From: an uncultured Candidatus Saccharibacteria bacterium
Lineage (GTDB): Bacteria > Patescibacteriota > Minisyncoccia > UBA6257 > 2-01-FULL-56-20
Length of the DNA: 64,000 nucleotides
NCBI GenBank assembly: GCA_964361595.1
Contig: CAYIAX010000004.1
Span: forward strand, 615 to 64,614
Reading direction: 5' to 3'
Positions 7,630-55,247 of the stretch are shown here, piece after piece. The notes beneath the pieces were generated by a model. The model worked only from the letters and a program-made list of their open reading frames with translations. It did not search any database and was not told where the DNA came from. A program made the translations under genes and the position numbers. Each line of letters begins with the position of its first letter. Within the stretch, counting starts at the first letter, position 1.

Positions 7630-9245
7630 ATTATCAACCAACAATCGGACTTGAGGTGCATGCGGAATTGAAGACGCGAACCAAGATGTTCTGCGATTCT
7701 TTAAACGACCCGGACGAGCGGCACCCAAATGTGAATGTTTGTCCGGTTTGCCTCGGCCATCCGGGAGCCTTGCCGACGATCAACAAGCAGGCCGTGGAGG
7801 CCGTTATCCGCGCGGGTTTGGCCCTGGGCGGAAAGATAAATGAGCGGGCGAAATTTGACCGCAAAAATTATTTTTATCCCGATCTGCCGAAGGGCTATCA
7901 AATCTCGCAGTACGACGAACCGATTGTCACGGGCGGGGAATTAAAAGGAGTGCGGGTGCGCAGAATTCACCTCGAGGAGGATACGGGAACATTGGCGCAT
8001 TTTGCGCCAAGCGCAGACCTGCGCGGACCGGACGCAGATCGACGCGGAAACTTTCTGCGTGAGTCGGCGTTAAGTCAGCGTGAGTCAGCGTCGTTGGTTG
8101 ATTTTAACCGCGCAGGCGTGCCCCTTTTGGAACTTGTGACTGAACCGGACATTACGAGCGCGGAACAGGCGGTGGAGTTCGGCAAGGCTTTACGTCTTAT
8201 TTTCCGTTATCTCGGGATTTCTGATGCCGACATGGAAAAGGGCCAAATGCGGCTTGAAGCCAATGTTTCGCTTCGCGAAACCGCGGATGATCGCGGATCA
8301 AACGCGGATCAACGCGGAAACGGCTTAGGCGAAAATCTCGGGACGAAGGTTGAGATTAAAAACATAAATTCGTTTAAGGCGCTAGGCGTGGCCATAGCTT
8401 ACGAGCTAAAGCGGCAGGAAGAGCATTTAAAAGAGGGAAAAAAGATCGTCCAGGAAACGCGCGGCTGGAACGAAGACAAACAAGCGACCGTTTCCCAGCG
8501 GTCGAAAGAAGAGGCGCACGATTACCGCTATTTCCCTGAACCCGATTTACCGCCCATTCGTCTTACGAATGGTCGAGCCTCGCCCACCGATGTGGGCGGG
8601 CCGCCTTCGGATATCGCCTTCGACATTGAAGCCATCCGCGCTTCGTTGCCTGAATTGCCGGAGCAAAAAATCGGCCGCTTCGAGCGCGAATTCGGAATTT
8701 CTGCCAAGCAAGCCGAACTTCTTGTAAGTGATAAAAAAGTCGCGGATTTTTTTGAAGAAGCTGTTAGCGAACTGGCAACACGAGACGAACTCACTACTTC
8801 TAGGATTGACAAGAAATCACAAGAAATGCTTTTTAACTATATTACTGGTACAGCGAGGGGTATTTACTCCACAATGCTTGTTCAAGAAAATGGAGCTGTG
8901 CTTGGGAAGATAAAACCGGAGCATATAGCCCATTTGATAGATCTTATTTGTGATGGAAAAATAGGCGAACGCCAGGCAAGGGATATCTTAAAGAAAATGT
9001 TTGAGGATGGTTCAGATCCAGAAGAAATTCTAAATCGGGAAGGTTTACACACGGTCTCCGACACAGAAGAACTCAAACTCGTGGTGGAAGAGGTGATCGC
9101 AGAAAATCCCACTGCGGCTGCGGATTATAAAAAAGGCAAAGCACAAAGTTTGCAATTTATGATTGGCAAAGCGATGGGAAAATTGAAGGGCAGAGGGAAT
9201 CCCGGCGTGCTCAAGGAAATTTTTGAGCAGAATCTATCGCAGTAA
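7626..9245 (+). CDS. gatB: Asp/Glu-tRNA amidotransferase subunit B; carries two in-frame repeat-element insertions
   Basis: GatB N-terminus (TIGLEVHAELKT), the CPVCLGHPGALP zinc motif and a C-terminal YqeY-like tail. Low-complexity inserts ADLRGPDADRRGNFLRESALSQRESAS and ADDRGSNADQRGNG. Confidence 0.9.
   Translation: MNYQPTIGLEVHAELKTRTKMFCDSLNDPDERHPNVNVCPVCLGHPGALPTINKQAVEAVIRAGLALGGKINERAKFDRKNYFYPDLPKGYQISQYDEPIVTGGELKGVRVRRIHLEEDTGTLAHFAPSADLRGPDADRRGNFLRESALSQRESASLVDFNRAGVPLLELVTEPDITSAEQAVEFGKALRLIFRYLGISDADMEKGQMRLEANVSLRETADDRGSNADQRGNGLGENLGTKVEIKNINSFKALGVAIAYELKRQEEHLKEGKKIVQETRGWNEDKQATVSQRSKEEAHDYRYFPEPDLPPIRLTNGRASPTDVGGPPSDIAFDIEAIRASLPELPEQKIGRFEREFGISAKQAELLVSDKKVADFFEEAVSELATRDELTTSRIDKKSQEMLFNYITGTARGIYSTMLVQENGAVLGKIKPEHIAHLIDLICDGKIGERQARDILKKMFEDGSDPEEILNREGLHTVSDTEELKLVVEEVIAENPTAAADYKKGKAQSLQFMIGKAMGKLKGRGNPGVLKEIFEQNLSQ
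7991..8095. repeat. GC-type palindromic element, in-frame inside gatB
   Basis: gacgcagatcgacgcggaaactttctgcgtgagtcggcgttaagtcagcgtgagtcagcg: ACGCGGA-type units followed by their reverse complements. Confidence 0.7.
8281..8320. repeat. GC-type element half-copy inside gatB
   Basis: ccgcggatgatcgcggatcaaacgcggatcaacgcggaaa. Confidence 0.6.
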
Positions 9246-22079: not shown

Positions 22080-22760
22080 ATGCAAAAAGAAGAACTGTTA
22101 AAAGAACTCACACGTGACGGATATTTAAAGAGTGAGAATGTTAAAGCCGCGTTTTCGGCTATCGATCGGAAGGATTTTGTCGCTCCCGGTTTTGAAGCAG
22201 AGGCATACTTGAATGTGCCCCTGCCGATCGGTTTTGGCCAGACGATTTCACAGCCTTTGACCGTTGTTTTTATGCTGGAGCTTTTGGACCTAAAACCGGG
22301 CCAGAAAATTTTGGAAATCGGTTCGGGATCGGGTTGGCAGACCGCAATGCTTGCTTATCTTGTAAGCAAGCCGCGGACTGACGCGGACTTTACGCAGATC
22401 AACGCAGAAAATAATCAAGAAAAATCCGCAGGCAGAGTAATTGCCATCGAGCGGATTCCGGAACTTCTGCGGATGGGGGAGAGAAATGTCAGCAAATACA
22501 ATTATGTGAGCAAAGGCACGGTGAAATTTGTCGAGGGCGACGGCTCGAATGGTTATGCGGCTGATGCTCCCTATGACCGGATCATTGGCGCGGCGAGCGC
22601 GGATAAATTGCCGGAAGCTTGGCGCGAGCAGTTGGCCGTCGGCGGACGGATCGTTACGCCCATTCGACAAAGCGTAATCGCTTTTGATAAGCTTTCGGAG
22701 AAAGAATTTAAAGAGACGGAATATCCGGGCTTTATCTTCGTGCCGCTTGTTAAAGGCTAG
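22080..22760 (+). CDS. pcm: protein-L-isoaspartate O-methyltransferase with a GC-type element insert
   Basis: GQTISQP, SAM motif LEIGSGSGW, and a C-terminal GGRIVTPI. Insert KPRTDADFTQINAENNQE. Confidence 0.8.
   Translation: MQKEELLKELTRDGYLKSENVKAAFSAIDRKDFVAPGFEAEAYLNVPLPIGFGQTISQPLTVVFMLELLDLKPGQKILEIGSGSGWQTAMLAYLVSKPRTDADFTQINAENNQEKSAGRVIAIERIPELLRMGERNVSKYNYVSKGTVKFVEGDGSNGYAADAPYDRIIGAASADKLPEAWREQLAVGGRIVTPIRQSVIAFDKLSEKEFKETEYPGFIFVPLVKG
22370..22412. repeat. GC-type element half-copy in pcm
   Basis: gcggactgacgcggactttacgcagatcaacgcagaaaat, preceded by the hairpin cttgcttatcttgtaagcaag. Confidence 0.6.
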
Positions 22761-38394: not shown

Positions 38395-38535
38395 ATGTCC
38401 AATCCGTCCAAATATTATTGCCCGCGGTGCAGAGTTAAGTTCTTGCACAAAGAAACAAATATGAATTTGAAGCACCATTGCGGGGAATTTGCCCGCTTGC
38501 TGTGGGGCAACGAAGGCGATGATGACGAAAGCTAA
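38395..38535 (+). CDS. small zinc-ribbon protein (46 aa; CPRC...HHCG)
   Basis: Preceded by an extended -10 (tgtTATAAT at 38365-38373). Confidence 0.3.
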   Translation: MSNPSKYYCPRCRVKFLHKETNMNLKHHCGEFARLLWGNEGDDDES

Positions 38536-39846
38536 TTAGGGCTTAGGAAAACTCGCGCTTAGAAGCGATTCCCGCGAAATTAAATATAAGCGGTTCGAGT
38601 CGGGATCGTACTTGGCTTTGCGGCCGCTTAAGTCAACCAAGTTTTCTTGAGCCAGATCATCGAGTTCCAAAAACACCGCCTTATCCTCATAGACGAGGAA
38701 TAGGTGATGGTCGTCTTTGTACCAATTGAGCGCCGTTATTTTATGGTTAGGCGGCAACTTAAATCGCCAGTAATCTTTTTCACCCCGGAAGGAGAAAACT
38801 TCAATACCCTTGCTTTCCAAGGCGGCGACCATGTCTCCGTTCTCATTAAAGCTGAAATCGAGAACGTCGCTGGCCAGTTTGGAGGTCGAGTTCGATTCGA
38901 CATTATAAAGATAGAACGAGCCATCGTCCTCCAGGATGCCGAGCGTGGAATTTTCCGCCCAAGCCAACTTTTTTGTTTTGCCGGGCAGAGTCTGGAGAGT
39001 GTCTGAACCTCGCTCGAGGAATTTGTCATAACGCATTAGCTTAGAAACTTTTGCTTTAGGGTCAAAAACAGTCCAAGCTACCCAGAAACGGGAAGCGTCG
39101 GCGGGGCCAAGGAGGAGCGTGGAGGTAGGCGTGAGCGCTTTCAAGGTATTTCTTTGGATGTCAAAAACCGCGAGGCTGCGATCGCGTTTTACGAGGACTT
39201 TGTTGTCCTGGAAAGGATCGACAAATAAATTAAAGTTTTCTTTGGGCAAAAGGAGCGAGAGCCTGCTCGAAAGATTGAGCCAAGTTACTTCGTCGAGGTT
39301 CACCCAAAACAATGTGTTTTTGGCGTCTTTCACGAGCAGGCGTCTTTCGTTGTTCGTAAAACCCAGCACATCCGCGCCGGGGATTTTCTGGCCGCGCCAG
39401 CTTAGTTCATTTTTGTTGTTGCGCGTAAGTATTTCCCCCTGGGCCAGCCAAAAGTCCGTAAGCGGGCCCTGCAAAACCAATTCTGTTTGCTGCGGCACAA
39501 GCACTGCATATTTCACTTCTGTAACCAAGGCCGGCAAAACTTCAACTTTCCGCTGCCACGGATGAAAGCCCGAAGCGGAGATCGAAAGTATATGGGTTTT
39601 TGGAAAAAGGTTATTGATCAGGGTTCCGGACTGGAAAAATCCGCTTTGCGTTTTTACCGGATTGTCATCAAGCGTCAAGGAAGTGTTTTCCGGGAAAGTG
39701 CGCACGTAAATTGCCCCCACTTTCTTGAAAACCACGGTTTTGAAATCGAAGCGCCAGCCTTTGGCAAAGAAAACTACGCCTGTGCCGAAAAGCAGGAAAA
39801 CCAAGATAAAAAAATAGAATATATATCTTCGCTGCCGTCTGGTCAT
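38536..39846 (-). CDS. membrane-anchored PEGA-domain plus beta-propeller-like protein (ORF extends to 39957; ATG 39846 is the likelier start)
   Basis: TM helix YIFYFFILVFLLFGTGVVFF; PEGA-like FKKVGAIYVRTFPENTSLTLDDNPVKTQSGFFQSGTLINNLFPKTHILSISASGFHPWQRKVEV; the C-terminal ~300 aa are strand-rich. Confidence 0.6.
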   Translation of the reverse strand: MTRRQRRYIFYFFILVFLLFGTGVVFFAKGWRFDFKTVVFKKVGAIYVRTFPENTSLTLDDNPVKTQSGFFQSGTLINNLFPKTHILSISASGFHPWQRKVEVLPALVTEVKYAVLVPQQTELVLQGPLTDFWLAQGEILTRNNKNELSWRGQKIPGADVLGFTNNERRLLVKDAKNTLFWVNLDEVTWLNLSSRLSLLLPKENFNLFVDPFQDNKVLVKRDRSLAVFDIQRNTLKALTPTSTLLLGPADASRFWVAWTVFDPKAKVSKLMRYDKFLERGSDTLQTLPGKTKKLAWAENSTLGILEDDGSFYLYNVESNSTSKLASDVLDFSFNENGDMVAALESKGIEVFSFRGEKDYWRFKLPPNHKITALNWYKDDHHLFLVYEDKAVFLELDDLAQENLVDLSGRKAKYDPDSNRLYLISRESLLSASFPKP

Positions 39847-40060
39847 AGATGATTTTTTTGTAGTATAATTTAAGCGGTCCCGCGCTAGATTTCGGATCAA
39901 ATAATTTTGCAAGGGAGGACGATTGCTTCTCGCCCGAGGGCTTGAGCTCGAGTCCACCCACCTGGTTTATATTTCCGGGATTATCTAGGCGGGATCCTTA
40001 AGCCCCCGATGTCCAAAGTCGGGGCTTTTAAGTCTTTAGGTCATAAATATTTGTCGGGCT

Positions 40061-40125
40061 GCCGGGAATTGCCGCCCACGGCCGTGGGCGAGCCTCGCCC
40101 CGTCCGAGCGGGGCGGGAACCGCTT
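40061..40125 (-). terminator. GC-rich hairpins downstream of tRNA-Pro (gcccacggccgtgggc; cgccccgtccgagcggggcg), including a 17-nt duplicate of the tRNA 3' end
   Basis: Perfect palindromes. A related hairpin, gagcctcgccccgttgcgacggggcgggagcc, recurs at 50608-50640. Confidence 0.4.
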
Positions 40126-40129
40126 TTTG

Positions 40130-40200
40130 TCGGGCCGCCGGGAATCGAACCCGGGCTGCAAGACCCCCAGCCTCGCGTACTGCCATTATACTACGGCCCG
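40130..40200 (-). tRNA. tRNA-Pro (anticodon GGG)
   Basis: Folded by hand: acceptor CGGGCCG/CGGCCCG with C1-G72 and A73; anticodon stem CGAGG/TCTTG (two G-U pairs), loop CTGGGGG; T-arm CCGGG-TTCGATT-CCCGG. Confidence 0.7.
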
Positions 40201-40245
40201 TTTTGTTACTAAGCATGCGATATGCGATAAGCCATACATCGCATG

Positions 40246-40431
40246 CTACTTTGCGCTTTTATGCAAAGTTCTTATGCAATTCGTGCAGATCAATTTGCGT
40301 ACGCCTTTAACCTTCGCCCACTGCAGGTTGGGATAATGACGCTTCCAGTTCACCGGATTGTACTTTCCGCGCAGCTTTTTGCGTTCGCCGCCCATGCGGG
40401 AACCTTTTTTACAGATGGCGCATTGACGCAT
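40246..40431 (-). CDS. rpmB: 50S ribosomal protein L28
   Basis: MRQCAICKKGSRMGGERKKLRGKYNPVNWKRHYPNLQWAKVKGVRKLICTNCIRTLHK matches the L28 pattern C.I.GK...N.SH....R.w.pNLQ...v..G....VC..C.R. Confidence 0.8.
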   Translation of the reverse strand: MRQCAICKKGSRMGGERKKLRGKYNPVNWKRHYPNLQWAKVKGVRKLICTNCIRTLHKSAK

Positions 40432-40520
40432 GTTTTTATAGCGATGCGAATGATTCAAATTACATCCGAATACCTCAAATTATTTGCGGTATTCGCATGC
40501 ATTCGCGGATTTGCATTGCG

Positions 40521-40994
40521 TTATTCCAGTTTGACCTTGAGTTTTTTCGTTTTTTTCCTGTTTAGCTTGGGCAAACGGACGGTGAGAATTCCGTTTTTGA
40601 ACGTAACCGAGGCGGCGTCCGGATCCACTTCTTGCGGCAAGATGATCGAGCGGGAGAACCTGCCCCAGTAACATTCCTGATAGAAATAATCCTCGTCGCT
40701 TACTTCTTCGCTTCGGCTGCGTTCGCCCCGGATGGTAACGGAGTCATTTGAAACATTGATGTCCAAATTTTCCGGTTTCACGCCGGCGACCGCCGATTCG
40801 ATCACGATATCGGAAGCCGTCTGGTAAACGTCAACTGTAAGCTGGCCTTCGGGTTCGTAGCTTTCCTCGATCGGCGCCACTTTTTTTGTCCGCAATGGCG
40901 CCATTGTGGCCTTGGTAAGCTCTATTTCCGGTTCGGGTTCCGCTTCCCCGTATTTGGCCAAACTTTCAAAAAATTTTTCTTCGGATGAGTCCAT
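40521..40994 (-). CDS. Hsp20/alpha-crystallin family small heat-shock protein
   Basis: Alpha-crystallin domain TVDVYQTASDIVIESAVAGVKPENLDINV...TIRGER...GRFSRSIILPQEVDPDAASVTFKNGILTVRLPK. Confidence 0.85.
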   Translation of the reverse strand: MDSSEEKFFESLAKYGEAEPEPEIELTKATMAPLRTKKVAPIEESYEPEGQLTVDVYQTASDIVIESAVAGVKPENLDINVSNDSVTIRGERSRSEEVSDEDYFYQECYWGRFSRSIILPQEVDPDAASVTFKNGILTVRLPKLNRKKTKKLKVKLE

Positions 40995-40995
40995 G

Positions 40996-41697
40996 TTACA
41001 CGCTTTCCCGCTTCAGTTTTTCGAGGTCATTCAGGCTCACAAAGCCCAGGATGATGACGAAAAGAAGCGCATAAATTATCGTTCCGTATTGCAGTATAAG
41101 ATAATTGAAGAAAGCATGCAAGATGGTGGCCAGAAACACGCCTTTTATAAGCATAAACCTGCTTCCGAATTTGCGGATGGAAAGCGCCCAATAGTAACCG
41201 ACAAGGCCGGAGGTAAGCGTATGTAGAAGCGTTGCGCCCACGAAGCGGAAAGTGGCAGTTTCAAAAAGCGGGCCCATGAGCGCCGCCTCGCCGCCGCCTT
41301 TGCCCATTAAGGCGCCGATATTCTCGAGCGTGGCGAAACCCAAGGCGGCGACGATCGTATAGATCATAGCATCGACCGGTTCATCGAAAGCGGGGTTTTT
41401 GCGTACGGAAAAATAAGCGGCGGCAAACTTCACTAATTCTTCAATAAAAGAAAATAAGAGGAGTGCAAGCATGAATAAGAGCGGCGAGAGTTCGCGCGAA
41501 GTGAAAAGCGTGCGAAATTCGGGCCAGGGGACGGTGAGCGCCACTTGAAGAAGGTAAGCGACAAGCGCAGACAATGCGCCCATAACGAACGTGAAGGCGA
41601 TGAGGCGCCTCGGTTCGGGATGCAGGTCTTCCTGCAGGTAGAAAAAAAGCCAGGTGAAGCCTGGAAGTATGCCTAGAACAAGTGCCAAGACTGACAT
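40996..41697 (-). CDS. PrsW-family intramembrane metalloprotease
   Basis: Polytopic membrane protein with EExxK (FIEELVKF), FxxxH-like, and HxxxN (ILHAFFNY) motifs. Confidence 0.55.
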   Translation of the reverse strand: MSVLALVLGILPGFTWLFFYLQEDLHPEPRRLIAFTFVMGALSALVAYLLQVALTVPWPEFRTLFTSRELSPLLFMLALLLFSFIEELVKFAAAYFSVRKNPAFDEPVDAMIYTIVAALGFATLENIGALMGKGGGEAALMGPLFETATFRFVGATLLHTLTSGLVGYYWALSIRKFGSRFMLIKGVFLATILHAFFNYLILQYGTIIYALLFVIILGFVSLNDLEKLKRESV

Positions 41698-41748
41698 GAT
41701 TTAGCTTAGAGGTTTTAGCTTATAGCTTTGAGTTCGCACATTTTTATT

Positions 41749-44568
41749 TTACCACAGCTCAATCATTAAGAGCGTCCCGGGCCGAAACTTTTGGTAAAGG
41801 GTTTCTGTTATAAAGGGCATAAAAGGGTGAAGAAGCTTTAAGGAGGTGAGTAAGCAGGTTTCGAGCGTGGCATACGCTCGCCGGGCGTCATTCAAGTTCT
41901 CGCCCTGGAGACGCGATTTTGCGGTTTCCACATGCTTATCCGCGAGCGCGTGCCAGATGTAGTGATAAAGCAGTTCAGCTGACCGGTGGTATTCGAATTT
42001 TTCGAGATGCGCCGTGACTTTTTTCTTTATGCCCGCCAGTTCAGCCGCAGTTTTCTTGTCCCAAGCCGTAGGAGCGGCAAGCGCGCCGTCTTTGGGCTTC
42101 CGCATATCGAGAAATCGCGAGATATTCCAGATTTTGGTCGCAAAATTGCGGTAAGCGCGGATTTTGTCTTCCGAGATCACGATATCGTTGCCGGGAGTAT
42201 TCCCGACCACAAGCGCCATCCGCAAAGCATCTGTGCCGTAAGTTTCCGCCACGCCCAGGGGATCGATTACGTTGCCCTTGGATTTGGACATTTTCTGCCT
42301 GTCCTTGTCGCGGACCAAGCCATGGAGGTAGACGGTTTTAAACGGAACTTTACCGGTGCGGTAAATTCCCAGCATCACCATGCGCGTCACCCAGAAGAAA
42401 AGAATGTCATAAGCGGTTTCCATGATATCGGTCGGGTAAAATTCCTCAAAATCGGATTTTGATTTAAGGAGGGTAGCGAACGGCCATTGGCCGGAGGAAA
42501 ACCAGGTGTCGAAAACGTCGGGGTCCTGTTCGTAGATGTGGTTGCCGCATTTTTCGCACGGTTCAAGGATATCAAATTGAATTGCCTGGGCGTTTTTTAT
42601 GCTTTCTCTCGTAAGCGCCCGCTCGGCAGTCAGGCCCCTTATCTGTTTCATGAGCATTCTGATGGTGCCGCCGTGGCTGACAACGATGACGTTTTTATGT
42701 TTATGGATTTTTTGATGTTTTTGGAAGGCCGCCCAGGCGCGTTTTTCCACTTCTTTGTAGCTTTCACCTCCGTAATCGTTGACCTCGTAGTCATATAAAC
42801 GTTTTCCGTATTTTTCTATGGCTTCGTTGCGCGCCACCCCTTCGGCGTCTCCCATGGAACGTTCGTGCAGTTCTTCTTCTATAATTATTTCTTTATCCCC
42901 CAGTGTTTTTGAAATAATTTCCGCAGTTTCTCTGGCTCTTTTCTGATTTGAACTGATAATAAGGTCTATCGGCGTATTCTTGAGCGCCTCGGCGGTTTTT
43001 TCGGCCTGAGCTTTTCCCGCGTCGTTTAGCGGATCGTCTCCGAGTCCTTGCAGTATGCTGTTTTTATTGGCGTCTGTTTCCCCGTGCCGTACCAGAAACC
43101 AGCTCGATTTTATTTCCGGATTTATTTTTACGTCGCCGCAGCCGAGGCAGAACCAGGCGGGGATTCGTATGCCCCAGACGATTTGGCGCGAAACGTTCCA
43201 GTCGCGGATATTCTTTAACCAATGGAGATACACTTTCTCCATCCTTTTGGGAATAAATTTAATTTTTCCGGATGTTACGGCCTCAATCCCCAAATCCCGC
43301 AGCGATTTTTCGGAAGCAGTTTTTTTCTGCGTTTGTCCGCGCTCGCCCCGAGTTGCATCGAGGGGTGAAGTCCGCGTAAGTCCGCGGGATGTCGGCGTAG
43401 CCGACATCCGGACGAACCACTGCATGCGGGGTAAGGGTTCAAGCGTCGAACCGCACTTGTAGCAAGTCGCAATTTGGTGGACGTAAGCCGGGTCAACTTT
43501 CTCTAAAATCCCTTTTTCCTGCATGGCGGCGGCAACTTTTTCCCTCGCCTCCGCCACCTTGAGGCCGTGAAAAGGCCCGGTTTCGCCCGTAAGCCGTCCG
43601 TTTTCGTTTATTATTATTTTCGGACCAGGTATTTCGTCCTTATGCCTCTGCCAGATCTCAAAGTCGGTCGCATCGTGCGCAGGCGTAACCTTAACCACGC
43701 CCGTGCCGAAGGCGGGATCAACGGCCTCGTCCGCAATGACTTTGAATTTAAGCGGGCCCAAAATGCCTTCCGCCTCGATTTCCTTGCCGATGTATTTCTT
43801 GTAGCGTTTGTCCCCAGGATTAACCGCGAGCGCTGTATCGCCGAACTTGGTCTCGGGCCGCACGGTTGCCAAGGTAAGCGGCCCGTACCTGATGTAATAA
43901 AGCGGATCGGTGCGTTCGACGTACTTTATCTCAAGATCGGAAAGTGCGGTCTTGTGCTTGGGGCACCAATTGACGACGCGGAAATCACGGTAGGCGAGAC
44001 CGTCTTTATAGAGTTGGGCAAAAGTTTCGTAAACTATTTTTACGATCTCGGGATCAAGCGTGAATTTTTCGCGTGACCAGTCGCAGGAGGCGCCCAGTTT
44101 GCGCAACTGGCCCTCCATGATTTTTTTATTCTCCTGCGTGAAGTCCCAAATCGCTTTGTAAACTTCTTCCCGGTCCATTCGAAATCGGCTTTTTCCTTCT
44201 TTCTCTAATTTCTTATCGAAAACCACCTGTGTTTCAAATCCCGCATGGTCGGCGCCGGGCAGCCACAGCGCCTTCTGGCCGCGCATGCGCGCAAAGCGGA
44301 TCATGATGTCCTGGAGCGTTACGAACACCGCGTGCCCCACATGCAAGGAGCCGTTCGCGTTCGGCGGCGGCATGATAATCGAAAACGCGGACTTACGCTG
44401 ACTTGACGCTGACTGTCGCTGACTTTTTCCGCGTTTGTCTGCGTGCCGTCCGCGTGAGTCTGCGCTGATCGGCGGTAGCCGATCAGGGTTGAAATATCCG
44501 GATTCCTCCCACTGCTTATAAATCGAATCTTCAATCTCTTTGTGGTCGTAGCGGGGGTCGAGTTCCAT
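41749..44568 (-). CDS. valS: valyl-tRNA synthetase with an inserted histidine-phosphatase (PGAM-like) domain and two GC-type element inserts
   Basis: PPPNANGSLHVGHA (HIGH), KMSKSKGN, editing domain, and the anticodon-binding helices. RHGETDANK...VVSHGGTIRML lies between the two Cys pairs of the zinc knuckle. Confidence 0.9.
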   Translation of the reverse strand: MELDPRYDHKEIEDSIYKQWEESGYFNPDRLPPISADSRGRHADKRGKSQRQSASSQRKSAFSIIMPPPNANGSLHVGHAVFVTLQDIMIRFARMRGQKALWLPGADHAGFETQVVFDKKLEKEGKSRFRMDREEVYKAIWDFTQENKKIMEGQLRKLGASCDWSREKFTLDPEIVKIVYETFAQLYKDGLAYRDFRVVNWCPKHKTALSDLEIKYVERTDPLYYIRYGPLTLATVRPETKFGDTALAVNPGDKRYKKYIGKEIEAEGILGPLKFKVIADEAVDPAFGTGVVKVTPAHDATDFEIWQRHKDEIPGPKIIINENGRLTGETGPFHGLKVAEAREKVAAAMQEKGILEKVDPAYVHQIATCYKCGSTLEPLPRMQWFVRMSATPTSRGLTRTSPLDATRGERGQTQKKTASEKSLRDLGIEAVTSGKIKFIPKRMEKVYLHWLKNIRDWNVSRQIVWGIRIPAWFCLGCGDVKINPEIKSSWFLVRHGETDANKNSILQGLGDDPLNDAGKAQAEKTAEALKNTPIDLIISSNQKRARETAEIISKTLGDKEIIIEEELHERSMGDAEGVARNEAIEKYGKRLYDYEVNDYGGESYKEVEKRAWAAFQKHQKIHKHKNVIVVSHGGTIRMLMKQIRGLTAERALTRESIKNAQAIQFDILEPCEKCGNHIYEQDPDVFDTWFSSGQWPFATLLKSKSDFEEFYPTDIMETAYDILFFWVTRMVMLGIYRTGKVPFKTVYLHGLVRDKDRQKMSKSKGNVIDPLGVAETYGTDALRMALVVGNTPGNDIVISEDKIRAYRNFATKIWNISRFLDMRKPKDGALAAPTAWDKKTAAELAGIKKKVTAHLEKFEYHRSAELLYHYIWHALADKHVETAKSRLQGENLNDARRAYATLETCLLTSLKLLHPFMPFITETLYQKFRPGTLLMIELW
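42560..43105 (-). other. PGAM/histidine-phosphatase domain-coding insertion inside valS
   Basis: Encodes ...CLGCGDVKINPEIKSSWFLVRHGETDANKNSILQGLGDDPLNDAG...NVIVVSHGGTIRMLMKQIRGL...FDILEPCEKCG, flanked by ValS zinc-knuckle cysteines. Confidence 0.75.
43327..43410. repeat. GC-type element (TCCGCG units plus palindrome gatgtcggcgtagccgacatc) in-frame in valS
   Basis: gaagtccgcgtaagtccgcgggatgtcggcgtagccgacatccgg. Confidence 0.6.
44384..44490. repeat. GC-type palindromic element, full copy, in-frame in the valS N-terminus
   Basis: acgcggacttacgctgacttgacgctgactgtcgctgact...tccgcgtttgtctgcgtgccgtccgcgtgagtctgcgctgatcggcggtagccgatcag; encodes ADSRGRHADKRGKSQRQSASSQRKSAF. Confidence 0.7.
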
Positions 44569-44667
44569 AATGTAAGGATTTTAACGCGAAGGCGAGATTT
44601 TTGGAAGATTTTCCGGAATGAAAAAGCTCTCAAATGTGCCGAGAGCTTCCGTGGATGAATGCTATTT

Positions 44668-44889
44668 TTACCAACGCCAGCAGCCGCGGCCGGATTTCTG
44701 CCGGGACCGAGCCCGCTGTTCCTTGGCCGATAGCCGGTTCTTGCCGAAGCGGGGTTGGTAACCGTTGCCGTTGGACGTGGTTTGAGTTTCTTCTGTATTT
44801 CCTCCGTTGCTGGAGGAGAATTGACGGGTCAGGGGCCTGCCGTACTTGGCATGCATGAGCCCGCCGTTAGGCGTACTGGCGTGCGCCAT
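44668..44889 (-). CDS. small Gly/Asn-rich hypothetical protein with a good SD (ggaagga)
   Basis: 73-aa ORF MAHASTPNGGLMHAKYGRPLTRQFSSSNGGNTEETQTTSNGNGYQ... with an RBS 8 nt upstream. Confidence 0.35.
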   Translation of the reverse strand: MAHASTPNGGLMHAKYGRPLTRQFSSSNGGNTEETQTTSNGNGYQPRFGKNRLSAKEQRARSRQKSGRGCWRW

Positions 44890-44955
44890 ACCGGAAACTC
44901 CTTCCCTACAAATTCAAGTTCTAATTATTAATTTAAGCTAGATTTCGTCTGAAAA

Positions 44956-46062
44956 TCAAATGTTCAGATCTCCCCGGGCTTCAAGTCTTAATTTCTTCTT
45001 GCGCAGGCGAGCTTGCCCGTCCGAAGCTCTTGAGCGAAGGAGGGTCATGTACCCCGCGGCGGCAATCATCACGGCGTTGTCGGTGTTGTATTGCATATCT
45101 GCTACAAAAAAGCGAATCCCCATTTTCCGTGTCGCTTTTTCCAGTTCGCTTCGCAAGAGTTTATTGGCCGCTACGCCGCCGGAGAGCATGATGGATTTGG
45201 CTTTGAAGATTTCTGTTGCGCGTATCGTTTTATAAACAAGCACATTGATCACCGCTTTTTCAAATGATGCGGCAACATCGGCTTTGTCGGCTTTTGGGTT
45301 GTCGCGGAGATAATACAGGACGGAAGTCTTGAGTCCCGAAAAACTGAAATCATAATTCTTTTGATCGCGCATGGGACGCGGGAAGGGAATGGCATTGGGA
45401 TCGCCCTTCGCGGCAAGGCGCTGGATTTCCGGCCCGCCGGGGTAGGGGAGGCGAAGCAAGCGCGCCACCTTATCGAAGGCTTCACCGGCGGCATCGTCGC
45501 GCGTTTCGCCGAGCTTTTGCCAGGATTTAAGATTTTTCATCAAAAGCAAAATCGTGTGCCCGCCGCTCACCAGCAGTGAAACTGCTGGGAATATCGAAGC
45601 ACGAAACCCGAAATCCGAAACGCGCTTCGAGCTTTCTTTTTTCTTCGGCAGAAGAAAAGAGAAGAGATGTCCTTCGAGATGATTTACTCCCACGAGCGGG
45701 GGCTTATGGCTTATGGCGAATGGCATATCGTAAAGCTCTTTTGCAAAACTGATGCCAGTCCACAGCGCCGGTTCCAAACCAGGGCCCACTGTGACGGAGA
45801 CCAAATCAACTTTTTTCCATAAGCTATATGCTCTTTGTCCTTTGCCAAAAATTTGCCGAAAAAGGATCGGCAAATTTTTTACGTGCTCGCGCTTGGCCAG
45901 ATTGGGAACCACGCCGCCGAAGGGGCGGTGGATGTTTATCTGCGAGGAAACCAGGTTTGTGAGCACCTTAAATTTCGGCAGCCCATTTGGGGAGCCTGCG
46001 CTAGCCTCAACCATGGCAAGCGCTGTCTCATCGCAACTTGTTTCAATGCCAAGTATAAACAT
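44956..46062 (-). CDS. tsaD: tRNA N6-adenosine threonylcarbamoyltransferase (Kae1/TsaD) with an AT-type element insert
   Basis: ILGIETSCDETALAMV, VGVNHLEGHL, SGGHT. Insert KKKESSKRVSDFGFRAS at 45590-45640. Confidence 0.9.
   Translation of the reverse strand: MFILGIETSCDETALAMVEASAGSPNGLPKFKVLTNLVSSQINIHRPFGGVVPNLAKREHVKNLPILFRQIFGKGQRAYSLWKKVDLVSVTVGPGLEPALWTGISFAKELYDMPFAISHKPPLVGVNHLEGHLFSFLLPKKKESSKRVSDFGFRASIFPAVSLLVSGGHTILLLMKNLKSWQKLGETRDDAAGEAFDKVARLLRLPYPGGPEIQRLAAKGDPNAIPFPRPMRDQKNYDFSFSGLKTSVLYYLRDNPKADKADVAASFEKAVINVLVYKTIRATEIFKAKSIMLSGGVAANKLLRSELEKATRKMGIRFFVADMQYNTDNAVMIAAAGYMTLLRSRASDGQARLRKKKLRLEARGDLNI
45590..45640. repeat. AT-type element in tsaD (encodes SDFGFRAS, the same peptide as the lepA copy)
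   Basis: cgaagcacgaaacccgaaatccgaaacgcgcttcgagc. Confidence 0.6.
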
Positions 46063-46166
46063 AAGCTTTGAATTTAGAGCGGCCCGCCCCTTCGCCAAGC
46101 GGGCGCTTTATTCCCCCCGCCGGGGGATGACCTTGGTGATACAGTAATAATTTTCGGCTGAAATTT

Positions 46167-46418
46167 TTAACCTGCCGGCGCTTCGTCAACAAGCAGTCTT
46201 GCGGTATTTGATCGCACTTCGAGAAATCCCGAACCCATAGGGATATAATGTTCTTGATTCTCACTATCAACGATTTTCACAATTCCCTTGGTTAGGGCGG
46301 AAATCAGCGGCCGATGGTGATCAAGGACCGTAATTTCGCCCAAGCGGGTTTTGCAGTTTACTGACTTGGCCTCGCCCTCGTAGAGGACATTTTTTAAGGA
46401 ATAAACGCTTACGTGCAT
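46167..46418 (-). CDS. atpC: F0F1 ATP synthase subunit epsilon (short, beta-sandwich only)
   Basis: 83 aa; VYSLKNVLYEGEAKSVNCKTRLGEITVLDHHRPLISAL... Confidence 0.8.
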   Translation of the reverse strand: MHVSVYSLKNVLYEGEAKSVNCKTRLGEITVLDHHRPLISALTKGIVKIVDSENQEHYIPMGSGFLEVRSNTARLLVDEAPAG

Positions 46419-46439
46419 AAAGATACAAATATACTAATT

Positions 46440-47957
<1,518 letters not shown>

Positions 47958-48896
47958 TTACTTCAACGACTCAGCTCCGGCGGTGATTTCGATGATTTCT
48001 TTCGTGATCGCGGCCTGGCGAGCTTTGTTATAAACGAGCGTGAGCTCCGACCTAAGCTCATTCGCGTTATCGGATGCGTTTTTCATGGCCACGCGGCGGG
48101 CGGCGTGCTCGGACGCGTTCGCCTCGAGCACCAAATGGTAAATTTCCATGAGTGTGAGGTGGGCGGCGAGTTCGTCGAGGATCTCCTGCGGCGAAGGTTC
48201 GATCAGATAATCTTCGTTGCCTGTTTGCGCCTCCGGTTGGTCAAGTTGCTTGAAATTGGCGAAGCGTCCGGTTTTAGGAACAAGTTCGCGGAGAGTATTT
48301 AAGAGCGCTTCGGCGCTCGCGGGCAAGAGCTCGCGAAAAACCATGTCTTGCCGGAGCGCGCTTTCAAAGCGCATTGAGAAGACGAGGACGCGGTCCCAGT
48401 CGCCCCGGAGAAATCCTTCCGTCAAAAATTTGGCCAGAGGTTCGATTTCCGCGATTGTGGTGTAATCGCCGAAGCGGGTAAATGCGCGTTTAAAGTTCGG
48501 CGTCCGGCGTTCGAGATAGGCGGCGGCTTTTTGGCCGACGGCGATGTACGCGTAAGCGGGATCGGCAAAATCTATTTTCTCCGCCCGGATGAATTTTTCC
48601 ACTGCGCGGATTACAGCGCTGTTGAACGAACCGGCCAGCCCCTTGTCTGAAGTGACGACCACAATCGCCGTGGTTTTAACGCCGCGTTTTTCGAGAAGCT
48701 TAGGCAGGTGCGCGGTTTCGAGACGCGTAAGCCGCGCGAGAAAATCCAGCGCCGAAAAAGCGTAAGGCCGCGAAGCCAAAGCGATCTCCTGGCTCTTTCG
48801 CATCTTGGTTGCCGCCACGAGCTCCATGGCTCGCGTGATCTGGTTTATGTTTGTCACCCCTTTGAGGCGGCGTTTAAGGTTTTGCAAAGACTCCAT
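47958..48896 (-). CDS. atpG: F0F1 ATP synthase subunit gamma
   Basis: MESLQNLKRRLKGVTNINQITRAMELVAATKMRK..., ending ...ITKEIIEITAGAESL. Confidence 0.9.
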   Translation of the reverse strand: MESLQNLKRRLKGVTNINQITRAMELVAATKMRKSQEIALASRPYAFSALDFLARLTRLETAHLPKLLEKRGVKTTAIVVVTSDKGLAGSFNSAVIRAVEKFIRAEKIDFADPAYAYIAVGQKAAAYLERRTPNFKRAFTRFGDYTTIAEIEPLAKFLTEGFLRGDWDRVLVFSMRFESALRQDMVFRELLPASAEALLNTLRELVPKTGRFANFKQLDQPEAQTGNEDYLIEPSPQEILDELAAHLTLMEIYHLVLEANASEHAARRVAMKNASDNANELRSELTLVYNKARQAAITKEIIEITAGAESLK

Positions 48897-49020
48897 CCCT
48901 CACCCTTAGAGAATTTGCGCAGAGCGCAAACTCTCGATATGTTTTGAGCTAAAGACCTTTATCTCCAAATAAGTTCTTGTGAAAATGTGTTTCATGAAAT
49001 GATTCTCTAAGGGTGAGGGA
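48897..49020 (-). repeat. TIR element, atp type, copy 1, upstream of atpG (29-codon uORF 48906..48995; ...ctcTAAgggTGAgggATG)
   Basis: TIRs tccctcacccttagagaat / attctctaagggtgaggga. uORF MKHIFTRTYLEIKVFSSKHIESLRSAQIL. Confidence 0.85.
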
Positions 49021-53432: not shown

Positions 53433-55247
53433 CTAAACTTTCCTATGTTTAGGCGTAACCCAAAAGCCCAGCCTGAACTTGCCGCCGAGCATCAGCCGCG
53501 TTTGCGCATCAAGACCCGGAAAAGCGCCGAAGACAATCAGAGTTATGGGGATCAAGAGCCACTGCAACGCATACAGGAAATAATGCCACCGGCGGAACCA
53601 GGCCGGCTTGGGGGGCAAAAGCAGTATGGCGAGTATAGCTGAACTGGCGATACCCAACATCGCCAAGCTCATAATGAAGCTTGTAATCTGCGGCAGGCTG
53701 TAAGACAGAAGCGAGTAGCTGAAAGCCTCGCCGCCCAGCCAGAGCGGCAGCCAGCCCAAAGCAAAAATCATGAGGGCGTTCGTCGCCCAGGAATGAAAAC
53801 CTTCGATCGTAATCAATGACCAGTACCATTTTTTCCGCAAGGGTATTTTTTTATCGTATAAAAACCCTTGCCCGCGATCCGAATCTACCAATCCATCCGA
53901 AGTATCCGAATGGCCTTGCTGAATAGGCATATCCGAATAATTCGGGTTGTTGATTCGGTAAGTATTCGGAGCATTCGAATGTAATTCGGATTTTTCGGAT
54001 TGCCTACCACAGAGCATATAAGGAATGTTTTCCGCGCCCCAGCCCCAGCGCCGGTGCTGGCGGTAGGTATTTTTCATCGTACTCCAAAAAGTCGGGCCGA
54101 CGTTTGCATCCATGGATACGGGATAGGATAAGGGCTCCACGCGGAACTCGCCGTTGTAGCGCAGAAATCCCTGCCAGAACACACGCGAGTCTTCGGAAAC
54201 GACATCCTTGTGCCAGAATCCCATATCAACAAGCGCCTGGAAAGGGATTGATTGGGACGAAAAAGATGTGAGCCGTTCCGGCCTCGCCTGCTGCATCATT
54301 TGCCAGAAGGTGGAGGAGAACGAAACTACGCGCGCGAAAGCGGGAGCCTGGTAAATATTGTTAGTGAAGAGCGGCACCGGTTGGTAGATTGCGCGCAGCC
54401 TGTCTTCGGCATTTAAAAATGCATAGGTGAGCCGTCCGAAGTAATCGGGGAAAATTTGCGTGTCAATGTCAAAAACGGAAACCAGAATATTTTCGTAGGA
54501 GAGCGCTGATTCACGCTGACTAGACGCTGACTTGCGCAGAACCTCGCTGGCGGTATCGTTGGTCTGCGTATAGTCTGCGTAAGTCCGCGTATTGACCAAG
54601 GGGTCAATAATTAGCCGCTTGGCTTCTTTGGCGGCCCAGGCTTCGTTCGAACCTTTGCCGGGAATTTCTCCGGGCAAGCCGGCCGGGTGTTTCGTAGTTA
54701 GAAACCTGCGGAAGCGCGCGCCGAATTCCGCTTTGATTTTTTTCGCCGTTTCCGCGGCTTCCTCGCCGCCGCTTGCTTCCGTCGCCAAAACCACGATGAA
54801 TTTGTCCGTGGGATAATTGGCTTTAACCAAACTTCCAAAACTTTCTCGCACGAGCGGATGGGGTTCTTTGTGTATAGGGAAGATGATTAAGTGAATGATT
54901 TCTTTCCAGGATATGCGATTCGAATCTACTAATTCATCCGAATGCTCCGATTCAACAATTCGGGGCATTCGGATGTCATTCGCCTGCCTGCCGGTCAGGC
55001 AGGGATTTTTAGGATCGCTTTGGAGCTTTTTTAATTCCGCGAGCCAATCCACCTTAAGATTGCGCTTCATCTGCCGGAAAGTCGCGCTCAAATGGAGCGA
55101 GAGGTAAACGGTTTTGAGGAGCCAGTAGGTGTCAAAAAGAATGATGAAGATGGCGATAAAAGCGGGAGTGGCCCAGGAGAGGAAAACCATGAGTCCGATC
55201 GTGAGCCAAGCCAGCGCTCCGGGAATAATTTCAAAAAAGCGGTACAT
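53433..55247 (-). CDS. processive family-2 glycosyltransferase (cellulose/chitin-synthase-like) with in-frame GC-type and AT-type element inserts
   Basis: N- and C-terminal TM bundles; DXD (VSVFDIDTQ); QxxRW motif (YRQHRRWGWG). Inserts KSASSQRESALS, NAPNTYRINNPNYSD... and IRMPRIVESEHSDELVDSNRISW. Confidence 0.6.
   Translation of the reverse strand: MYRFFEIIPGALAWLTIGLMVFLSWATPAFIAIFIILFDTYWLLKTVYLSLHLSATFRQMKRNLKVDWLAELKKLQSDPKNPCLTGRQANDIRMPRIVESEHSDELVDSNRISWKEIIHLIIFPIHKEPHPLVRESFGSLVKANYPTDKFIVVLATEASGGEEAAETAKKIKAEFGARFRRFLTTKHPAGLPGEIPGKGSNEAWAAKEAKRLIIDPLVNTRTYADYTQTNDTASEVLRKSASSQRESALSYENILVSVFDIDTQIFPDYFGRLTYAFLNAEDRLRAIYQPVPLFTNNIYQAPAFARVVSFSSTFWQMMQQARPERLTSFSSQSIPFQALVDMGFWHKDVVSEDSRVFWQGFLRYNGEFRVEPLSYPVSMDANVGPTFWSTMKNTYRQHRRWGWGAENIPYMLCGRQSEKSELHSNAPNTYRINNPNYSDMPIQQGHSDTSDGLVDSDRGQGFLYDKKIPLRKKWYWSLITIEGFHSWATNALMIFALGWLPLWLGGEAFSYSLLSYSLPQITSFIMSLAMLGIASSAILAILLLPPKPAWFRRWHYFLYALQWLLIPITLIVFGAFPGLDAQTRLMLGGKFRLGFWVTPKHRKV
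53878..54003. repeat. AT-type element (CCGAAT/ATTCGG units; core gaatctaccaatccatccgaa) in-frame in the GT2 gene
   Basis: Shares a 20-nt core with the copy at 54913-54985 (gaatctactaattcatccgaa). Confidence 0.6.
54503..54592. repeat. GC-type palindromic element in the GT2 gene
   Basis: gcgctgattcacgctgactagacgctgacttgcgcagaacc...ggtctgcgtatagtctgcgtaagtccgcgtattgac. Confidence 0.7.
54913..54985. repeat. AT-type element, second copy in the GT2 gene, plus hairpin cctgcctgccggtcaggcagg
   Basis: cgattcgaatctactaattcatccgaatgctccgattcaacaattcggggcattcggatgtcattcg. Confidence 0.55.

Follow-up and report, generated by a model that had tools for sequence, protein, structure and literature searches.

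A histidine phosphatase nested in the CP3 zinc knuckle of a patescibacterial valyl-tRNA synthetase, and the exchange of CP3 contents among its relatives

Aminoacyl-tRNA synthetases (aaRSs) are among the most conserved enzymes, and their modules CP1, CP2 and CP3 are usually seen as ancient and fixed. Here we describe a valyl-tRNA synthetase (ValRS) in which a whole histidine phosphatase is nested in CP3. Its gene, valS, lies on a stretch of 64,000 nucleotides of contig CAYIAX010000004.1 (assembly GCA_964361595.1) from an uncultured Candidatus Saccharibacteria bacterium, an ultra-small patescibacterium from groundwater; the whole stretch is called the window below.

The valS locus

The gene is a single open reading frame (ORF) of 939 amino acids (aa) on the minus strand at 41749-44568. 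A hidden frameshift or stop was looked for over this interval and none is present. The parts of the gene relevant to the insertion are as follows.

41749..44568, minus strand: valS, ValRS with nested histidine phosphatase; stop codon TAA at 41749-41751
43150..44568, minus strand: N-terminal part of ValRS, aa 1-473 (first Rossmann half, HIGH, CP1 editing domain, CP2)
44332-44343, minus strand: HIGH motif, here HVGH, aa 76-79
aa 235-245 and aa 288-303, minus strand: CP1 editing motifs TVRPETKFGDT and GTGVVKVTPAHDATDF, respectively
43138..43149, minus strand: first Cys pair of the CP3 knuckle, C474-L-G-C477 (CLGC, aa 474-477)
43108..43137, minus strand: entry linker GDVKINPEIK, 10 aa, aa 478-487, conserved; predicted local distance difference test (pLDDT) above 94
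42568..43107, minus strand: nested His_Phos_1 fold, 180 aa, aa 488-667; boundaries from AlphaFold2 and DSSP
43081-43089, minus strand: R494-H495-G496, catalytic
42937-42939, minus strand: R544, catalytic
42862-42864, minus strand: E569, catalytic
42673-42675, minus strand: H632, catalytic
42547..42567, minus strand: exit linker LEP (3 aa, aa 668-670) and second Cys pair, C671-E-K-C674 (CEKC)
41749..42546, minus strand: C-terminal part of ValRS, aa 675-939 (QDPDVFDTWFSS, KMSKS, anticodon-binding domain)
42493-42528, minus strand: pocket strand QDPDVFDTWFSS, aa 681-692
42280-42294, minus strand: KMSKS, aa 759-763

The synthetase and the site of insertion

Pfam finds tRNA-synt_1 (E = 3e-120) in two stretches that are split by His_Phos_1, and Anticodon_1 at the C-terminal end. 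The cut-offs of both NCBIfam equivalogs are passed, with 809.6 bits for PRK05729 (valS; cut-off 704) and 769.4 bits for TIGR00422 (cut-off 612.1). The Thr-rich and GTG...PAHD motifs of CP1 are both present as TVRPETKFGDT and FGTGVVKVTPAHDATDF. Among 99 homologues there is no variation in KMSKS, in the D-T-W-S-S pocket strand or in the editing-site residues T235, R237, E239, T240, D244, G288, G290, H298 and D302; for the HIGH residues conservation is at least 90%. An AlphaFold2 model of the full-length protein, built on a 99-sequence alignment, has a mean pLDDT of 92.0 and a predicted template modelling score (pTM) of 0.90, with disorder confined to two loops (aa 48-58 and 397-415). The top Foldseek match of the whole model is the ValRS of T. 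thermophilus, 1GAX (E = 1.6e-59, query and target TM-scores TMq 0.70 and TMt 0.76, 33% identity). The equivalog scores, the HIGH, KMSKS and pocket-strand motifs, the CP1 editing domain and the 1GAX-like fold together identify the protein as a valine--tRNA ligase.

The window protein shares with 1GAX the domain order, the HIGH and KMSKS motifs, the CP1 editing domain, the anticodon-binding bundle and the CxxC...CxxC knuckle of CP3 just before the D-x-F-D-T-W-F-S-S strand. The two differ in the knuckle. The alignment with 1GAX (E = 5e-161) is interrupted exactly at the two CxxC pairs, where the insert sits. In T. thermophilus the knuckle segments PAWYCEDCQAVNV and SCEACGSPRLKRDEDVFDTWFSS leave about 17 residues between the Cys pairs; in the window protein there are 193, and a whole enzyme is nested in them. 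The window protein also differs from 1GAX in having no C-terminal coiled-coil arm and in carrying two disordered loops. The first-pass annotation of this DNA, made from the letters and their translations, had placed a histidine-phosphatase domain in frame inside valS at 42560-43105, between the CLGC and CEKC pairs. This placement is borne out by the counterparts of the two pairs in T. thermophilus, and the interval is essentially exact when compared with the fold boundaries 42568-43107. Translating the exact coordinates returned all the strings that had been quoted (CLGC, RHGETDANK, VVSHGGTIRML, CEKC and QDPDVFDTWFSS).

In the literature the module is named CP3 and is described as a cysteine-rich zinc finger of 25-77 aa, which links CP2 to the second Rossmann half; a catalogue of aaRS insertion modules lists no function for it. 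CP3 would lead into Rossmann strand beta4 at its N-terminal end, which lies on the sheet's far side from the catalytic cleft, and the amino-acid-pocket Trp would be placed at this same strand's C-terminal end.

Conservation of the site was followed in a homologue set made up of the best 120 matches in a collection of 5.8 billion proteins. In at least 87 clusters of this set PF00300 lies inside the synthetase, and these proteins are 52-66% identical to the window protein. Nearly all of the 87 fused homologues retain the knuckle cysteines (C474, C671 and C674 in 85/87 each, C477 in 83/87), and the entry region is conserved as well (N483 in 66/87, K487 in 70/87, W490 in 80/87). Because the cysteines and the entry linker are conserved, we take the knuckle to be intact, with the phosphatase nested at its tip.

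The nested phosphatase

Pfam assigns aa 491-661 to His_Phos_1 (PF00300) with E = 7e-47 and 160 bits, the gathering cut-off being 21.7. The phosphatase signatures RHGETDANK (aa 494-502) and VVSHGGTIRML (aa 629-639) are in frame. The gathering score, the five catalytic residues and the alpha/beta fold place the insert in branch 1 of the histidine phosphatases. With R494, H495, R544, E569 and H632 all in place, the catalytic competence that the first-pass annotation had thought plausible is to be expected of the window copy. Among the 87 fused clusters R494 is present in 83, H495 in 85, R544 in 87, E569 in 82 and H632 in 87, and the complete Arg-His-Arg-Glu-His set is found in 76 and in the window copy. 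Mean identity across the 87 clusters is 44% in the phosphatase domain as compared to 71-77% in the Rossmann halves. Since the catalytic set is kept despite the low identity of the domain, selection on catalysis is indicated. A few relatives have lost single residues: the nucleophile His is replaced by Tyr in P0038 and P0097, and the acid Glu by Gly in a clade of five members (P0065, P0072, P0073, P0074 and P0077), in which the motif of the second His is also rewritten (THIETIH).

The phosphatase folds as a confident lobe of its own, with pLDDT 95-98 in the full-length model and 96.9 when it is modelled alone. In Foldseek searches with the insert alone, small-substrate histidine phosphatases of branch 1 are matched with TMq 0.86-0.92 at about 28% identity. 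The nearest solved folds are PspA (4ij5/4ij6), GpgP (4qih), a mycobacterial hydrolase (6s2q) and the riboflavin-pathway HFP (9mmh); for 4ij6, 4qih and 6s2q TMq is 0.88-0.92. Structures of cofactor-dependent phosphoglycerate mutase (dPGM) are longer targets and superpose with a root mean square deviation of roughly 3-4.5 A, as compared to about 2 A for the small phosphatases. In the model, the predicted fold and compact cap are thus shown to fit the small-substrate type (PspA, GpgP, CobC, PhoE), unlike dPGM.

More specific assignments fail at the level of profile scores. The insert is not a dPGM (TIGR01258, pgm_1, 61.2 bits versus 81.7; other dPGM equivalogs 76-85 versus 225-316), nor a CobC alpha-ribazole phosphatase (TIGR03162, 106.1 bits versus 162.9; PRK15004, 76 versus 250), nor an orthologue of PspA (74.5 bits versus a cut-off of 350). 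Because the domain scores under every NCBIfam equivalog cut-off, it is, as judged by these profiles, a generic member of the superfamily and no orthologue of a characterised enzyme. The isoelectric point (pI) was considered as a clue to RNA binding; it is 8.0 for the ValRS inserts and 5.9 for free-standing domains, a difference which is confounded by lineage and was not used.

Comparison with the small branch-1 phosphatases PspA (4ij5), GpgP (Rv2419c, 4qih), CobC (6e4b/6nru) and PhoE (1h2e/1ebb) shows the same fold (TM 0.86-0.92), the same catalytic set and the same compact cap. Apart from the low identity and the equivalog scores, the insert differs from them in that the C-terminal tail is replaced by a strand leading back to the knuckle, and in that it is nested and not free-standing.

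Distribution of the fusion

The survey of relatives returned the same fusion throughout the 87 clusters mentioned above, which are drawn from NCBI, JGI, ENA and Logan. Their named sources are Candidatus Liptonbacteria, Wolfebacteria, Paceibacterota, Parcubacteria and 'Patescibacteria group'. When one genome per species was scanned, at least 16 species representatives proved to have the fused ValRS, Moraniibacteriota and Sungiibacteriota also being among them. The phosphatase-in-ValRS architecture is evidently widespread in patescibacterial ValRS and no one-off. Two independent assemblies contain the identical 939-aa protein: one at ENA, from the 0.1-um fraction of Hainich groundwater, and one made by Logan from a set of public reads.

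Where a fused protein has a source name at all, it mostly stands at NCBI as 'class I tRNA ligase family protein', or else as 'hypothetical', and at JGI as valyl-tRNA synthetase; the window protein itself has none. Neighbours that have no insert are mostly named valine--tRNA ligase. Three short ORFs of 214-235 aa (P0128, P0137 and P0143) consist of CxxC, His_Phos and CxxC alone. Their ends fall where the ValRS flanks would be, and they are probably frameshifted or fragmentary valS calls.

CP3 as an exchangeable cassette site

The first-pass annotation had dealt with the phosphatase as a single fusion. Here it needs correction: the phosphatase is one among several interchangeable CP3 cargoes. 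Six states of CP3 can be distinguished in ValRS of the candidate phyla radiation (CPR). The first two are a short loop with no knuckle and a short zinc knuckle, and the third is the knuckle with His_Phos. In the fourth, a CP3 loop with no cysteines holds a divergent His_Phos that lacks the arginine of RHG (P0050 and P0067). The fifth is a module of about 110 aa of the P0054 type, which occurs alone (P0054, P0094, P0099) or in tandem with His_Phos (P0031, P0053). The sixth is a module of 103 aa (P0083, P0118) or of 155 aa (P0102).

The divergent phosphatase of P0050 and P0067 carries the motif FVHGTTTDN. Because the bodies of these two proteins are 90-92% identical to standard knuckle-phosphatase bodies and yet the phosphatase is divergent, their insert is taken as an independent capture. 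As for the other cargoes, the 155-aa module matches the phage family phrog_19935 'RNA-binding protein' in PHROGs with E = 1.5e-8, and a match to DUF3850 is weak. The His_Phos insert matches an uncharacterised phage family (E = 1e-35). For the module of about 110 aa a weak PHROG match was the sole result; an ASCH-like fold was considered for it and dropped after a Pfam and PDB profile search gave nothing significant. The 103-aa module had no match in the searches run. A phage origin of the cassette was considered and rejected: a scan of viral contigs found no close relative, the best matches being 27-38% identical, and the PHROG family matched with E = 1e-35 is uncharacterised. No cargo matched a defence family in PADLOC.

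In a neighbour-joining tree of ValRS bodies with CP3 removed, the cargo states are thoroughly interspersed (all trees were distance-based, by neighbour-joining and by the unweighted pair group method with arithmetic mean, on p-distances). Pairs of nearly identical bodies differ in what CP3 contains:

P0004 and P0083: bodies 93.6% identical; His_Phos versus 103-aa module
P0023 and P0118: bodies 94.6% identical; His_Phos versus 103-aa module
P0016 and P0100: bodies 91.8% identical; His_Phos versus short knuckle
P0013 and P0050: bodies 91.5% identical; two unrelated types of His_Phos

Across the 87 fused proteins, the identity of the bodies shows essentially no correlation with that of the inserts (r = 0.11). 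A quartet with bodies 87-91% identical carries two insert alleles, which are 84-93% identical within and 45-50% between alleles. At the DNA level, two syntenic loci (L085 and L086) agree to 96-98% over the downstream genes and the 3' half of valS, and to 81% over the 5' half; CP3 cannot be aligned. The pair is a mosaic, with about 81% identity in the 5' half, 97.7% in the 3' half and downstream genes, and the break at CP3, which suggests intragenic recombination. In a second pair of loci the whole CP3 segment is replaced, with no clean indel. Since near-identical bodies differ in CP3 content, with r = 0.11 and breaks at the DNA level, the relatives show the CP3 cargo to be accessory and exchanged by recombination, its phylogeny being decoupled from that of the body.

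Nested phosphatases in isoleucyl-tRNA synthetase

A profile search with the insert also returned isoleucyl-tRNA synthetases (IleRS), which score 818-886 bits against TIGR00392 (cut-off 621). IleRS with nested His_Phos occur in CPR genomes, those of Paceibacterota, Buchananbacteria and Peribacteria among them. A single domain at the homologous CP3 knuckle is found in some, and in Peribacteria there are two in tandem. The loci and representatives are:

IleRS loci with two tandem His_Phos (Peribacteria): L023, L046, L080
IleRS loci with one His_Phos: L035, L039, L043, L066, L068, L069
IleRS representatives with nested His_Phos_1: P0125, P0126, P0127, P0129, P0135, P0146, P0147, P0223, P0263

The hosts of the domain were counted among the best 150 hits of a search of 1.84 billion representatives, 21 of which exceed 500 aa. 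Pfam covered 16 of these 21 (all except P0130, P0132, P0133, P0138 and P0153). Class I synthetases make up 15 of the 16, and one (P0186) consists of tandem His_Phos domains alone. Long hits with a diagnostic C-terminal domain are either IleRS (DUF5915) or ValRS (Val_tRNA-synt_C). The motifs of P0130, P0133 and P0138 mark them as ValRS fragments, and P0132 carries the IleRS motif.

Sites other than CP3 are also used. Three of them were seen to hold His_Phos: one precedes the WGxPxP hairpin, one separates the pocket strand from KMSKS, and one follows KMSKS and immediately precedes the anticodon-binding domain. In IleRS there are at least two non-CP3 sites, namely the latter two; the hairpin site was encountered in a ValRS, P0212, and in P0121, a fragment of a class I synthetase that has four copies. 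Across the synthetases the number of nested copies ranges from one to four.

When 401 domain sequences were clustered, 107 of the 114 ValRS inserts fell into one group; four 'free' sequences joined them there, and ValRS fragments account for at least two of these four. At least 10 separate groups hold the inserts of IleRS and a few from ValRS, with about 30% identity to one another as compared to 28-32% to free-standing phosphatases. Because these scattered groups are no nearer to each other than to free-standing phosphatases, the pattern indicates that His_Phos has been captured repeatedly and independently. This is the chief argument against a purely random passenger.

The housekeeping gene and its neighbourhood

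Gene order on the window contig is TsaD - valS - PrsW protease - Hsp20. The same order is common to fused relatives, to relatives with a short knuckle or none, and to one relative with the 103-aa module. On this conserved synteny an additional paralogue was rejected, and as read from sequence and position it is the orthologous housekeeping valS. The predicted enzyme would charge tRNA(Val) with valine; its orthology is backed by the synteny with plain valS. The extended order ATP synthase gamma/beta/epsilon - TsaD - valS - PrsW-family protease - Hsp20 (window ~38500-48900, minus strand; loci L081 and L083-L088) is kept among these Paceibacteria regardless of the CP3 cargo.

An origin by fusion with a neighbouring gene was rejected: no His_Phos gene adjoins valS in the insert-less relatives examined, and there is no second His_Phos within the 64-kb window. 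Rfam detects no regulatory RNA upstream of valS, its matches in the window being three tRNAs. No toxin gene adjoins valS in the neighbourhoods of the window and its relatives.

Possible function

We favour the interpretation that the protein is a bifunctional ValRS with an accessory phosphomonoesterase, the two activities being independent and the phosphatase being tethered to, and co-expressed with, an essential enzyme. Taken as one package, this seems to us somewhat probable. The tip of the CP3 hairpin would have been opened and a complete branch-1 histidine phosphatase nested in it through the linkers of 10 and 3 aa. H495 would be transiently phosphorylated to give a phospho-histidine intermediate, and the substrate to be hydrolysed would be a small metabolite or nucleotide with a phosphomonoester. 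The two chemistries would probably proceed independently, and the benefit would lie in tethering and in co-expression with an essential and constitutively expressed synthetase. The activities are considered independent because CP3 has no reported contact with tRNA and because close relatives live without the cargo.

Two points weigh against this interpretation. In 11 of the 87 clusters at least one catalytic residue is missing and the domain is still present, and its retention after such a loss hints at an additional, non-catalytic role. His_Phos domains of separate lineages also recur in IleRS and ValRS, at no fewer than four sites and with copy numbers of one to four, which speaks for a specific functional tie to these synthetases over a random passenger.

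A doubtful possibility is that the phosphatase is coupled to aminoacylation and clears a 2'/3'-phosphate or pyrophosphate from the 3' terminus of tRNA, or else the released nucleotide or pyrophosphate. Such coupling would agree with the repeated presence of unrelated His_Phos lineages in ValRS and IleRS, the two closest class Ia paralogues, where they occupy several surface sites and also stand in tandem, and with the match of another CP3 cargo to the phage 'RNA-binding protein' family. In addition, the linkers are short, conserved and confidently modelled, and docking is therefore rigid. On the other hand, the phosphatase is dispensable among ValRS that are 92-95% identical, the many different insertion sites speak against a precise geometry, and the nearest folds are phosphatases of small metabolites. 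The literature search gave no histidine phosphatase that acts on RNA ends, and CP3, for which no contact with tRNA has been described, would by its topology precede strand beta4 of the Rossmann fold.

A broader and unlikely reading, which we offer as speculation, is that in Patescibacteria the surface loops of ValRS and IleRS, chiefly CP3, are a hypervariable dock for cargo, recombining between lineages, and that the phosphatase, the cargo met most often, is a built-in repair or immunity enzyme for a component of translation. It would then dephosphorylate tRNA whose 3' end carries a blocking phosphate or pyrophosphate, or the synthetase itself once a kinase toxin has attacked it.

It is known that kinases targeting aaRSs and toxins modifying the CCA end of tRNA exist. 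By analogy, the cargo could be a conflict or immunity module that counters HipA-type kinases, CCA pyrophosphorylation of the toxSAS type or a phosphorylated inhibitor, with the turnover of cassettes reflecting an arms race. Presence/absence polymorphism and allelic cassette exchange among near-identical hosts would suit such a module, as would the variable copy number and the fact that all three identifiable cargo types have homologues in phage families. Against it stand the lack of PADLOC matches and of close relatives on viral contigs and the absence of toxin genes from valS neighbourhoods, and analogy is its sole footing; we hold it to be decidedly unlikely.

The domain could also be non-catalytic and serve in structure or in sensing a ligand, either as a pseudo-enzyme or as an allosteric sensor of a phosphorylated metabolite, by which ValRS would be modulated. 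Its retention in the relatives that have lost the nucleophile or the acid is in line with this, and so is its rigid attachment near strand beta4, the bearer of the amino-acid-pocket Trp. However, the window copy and the 76 complete clusters keep all five catalytic residues at 44% mean identity, and the existence of close relatives with no domain means that ValRS does not need it. For the window copy a non-catalytic role is the least likely of the coupled, conflict and non-catalytic readings, and its chance is very small.

An artefactual origin of the architecture (a chimeric assembly, or two genes parted by a hidden frameshift), or its being a mobile protein element (an intein), has a negligible chance: nothing was found in its favour, though P0128, P0137 and P0143 resemble stand-alone knuckle-phosphatase-knuckle pieces, and their divergence from ValRS sets in exactly where the knuckle is flanked, as is expected of frameshifted fragments; the single ORF and the repetition of the architecture in 87 clusters exclude a frameshift or two genes, the identical protein from two independent assemblies excludes a chimera, and the Pfam hits include no Hint or intein family, with no Cys/Ser...His-Asn junction at the insert bounds GDVKINPEIK/SSWF and FDI/LEPC, as had already been read from the letters in the first-pass annotation.

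Relation to known systems and significance

The first-pass annotation also held the fusion to be undescribed, and a full-text search of the literature agrees with this: no link between an aaRS and a histidine phosphatase or PGAM domain was found. Three known systems come close. RNase H/acid phosphatase proteins of the Rv2228c type (NCBIfam NF005567) likewise join a nucleic-acid enzyme to a CobC-like phosphatase, and the insert scores 97 bits against this family; that is far below the cut-off of 326, and the Rv2228c type is an end-to-end fusion, whereas here the phosphatase is nested in the catalytic domain. IleRS with an N-acetyltransferase (NCBIfam NF040702, ileS_w_GNAT) is a curated precedent for a class Ia synthetase with an extra catalytic domain, differing in the accessory enzyme (GNAT) and in the host (IleRS). 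Inteins in essential genes resemble the present case as large in-frame inserts at a conserved site that are patchy among close relatives. In contrast to them, the phosphatase has neither Hint nor splice-junction residues, and what stays in the mature protein, rigidly docked, is a conserved enzyme fold. The window protein thus belongs to a known kind, the aaRS with an accessory domain. What is surprising is the nesting in CP3, the dynamics of the cassette and the convergent recurrence.

CP3 here is an actively exchanged docking site for whole enzymes, and near-identical ValRS can differ by a phosphatase of 180 aa. This provides a concrete and testable case of new activities being grafted onto essential translation enzymes in genome-reduced episymbionts. 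There is also a gap in annotation, as public sequences of the fused architecture mostly stand under generic names or none. For protein engineering, nature seems to have validated CP3 as a site that tolerates inserted domains. Should tRNA or the synthetase itself be what the phosphatase acts on, a new layer of translation quality control or defence would be added. If the repair or immunity reading is true, this would be the first aaRS with an on-board counter-measure against phosphorylation-based translation toxins.

Other features of valS

At its C-terminus (41749-41790) the protein stops directly past the anticodon-binding bundle and has no C-terminal coiled-coil tRNA-binding arm such as standard bacterial ValRS possess. 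The arm is kept in some fused relatives (P0138 and P0142). Two further features lie in the N-terminal part of the gene, the first being outside the phosphatase:

44383..44481, minus strand: low-complexity disordered loop 1, aa 30-62; pLDDT below 50
43279..43395, minus strand: low-complexity disordered loop 2, aa 392-430; same repeat family as loop 1, in opposite orientation

Both loops are encoded by a dispersed palindromic DNA element with units of about 10 nt, ACGC[GA]GAC / GTC[CA]GCGT. There are five copies of the element in the window versus 0.03 expected, and all of them lie within long ORFs; the further copies are at 8072-8090, 22372-22390 and 54571-54589. One copy forms a long hairpin (z = -5.8). 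The element resembles repetitive extragenic palindromic (REP) or Rickettsia palindromic element (RPE)-like sequences inserted in frame into coding genes.

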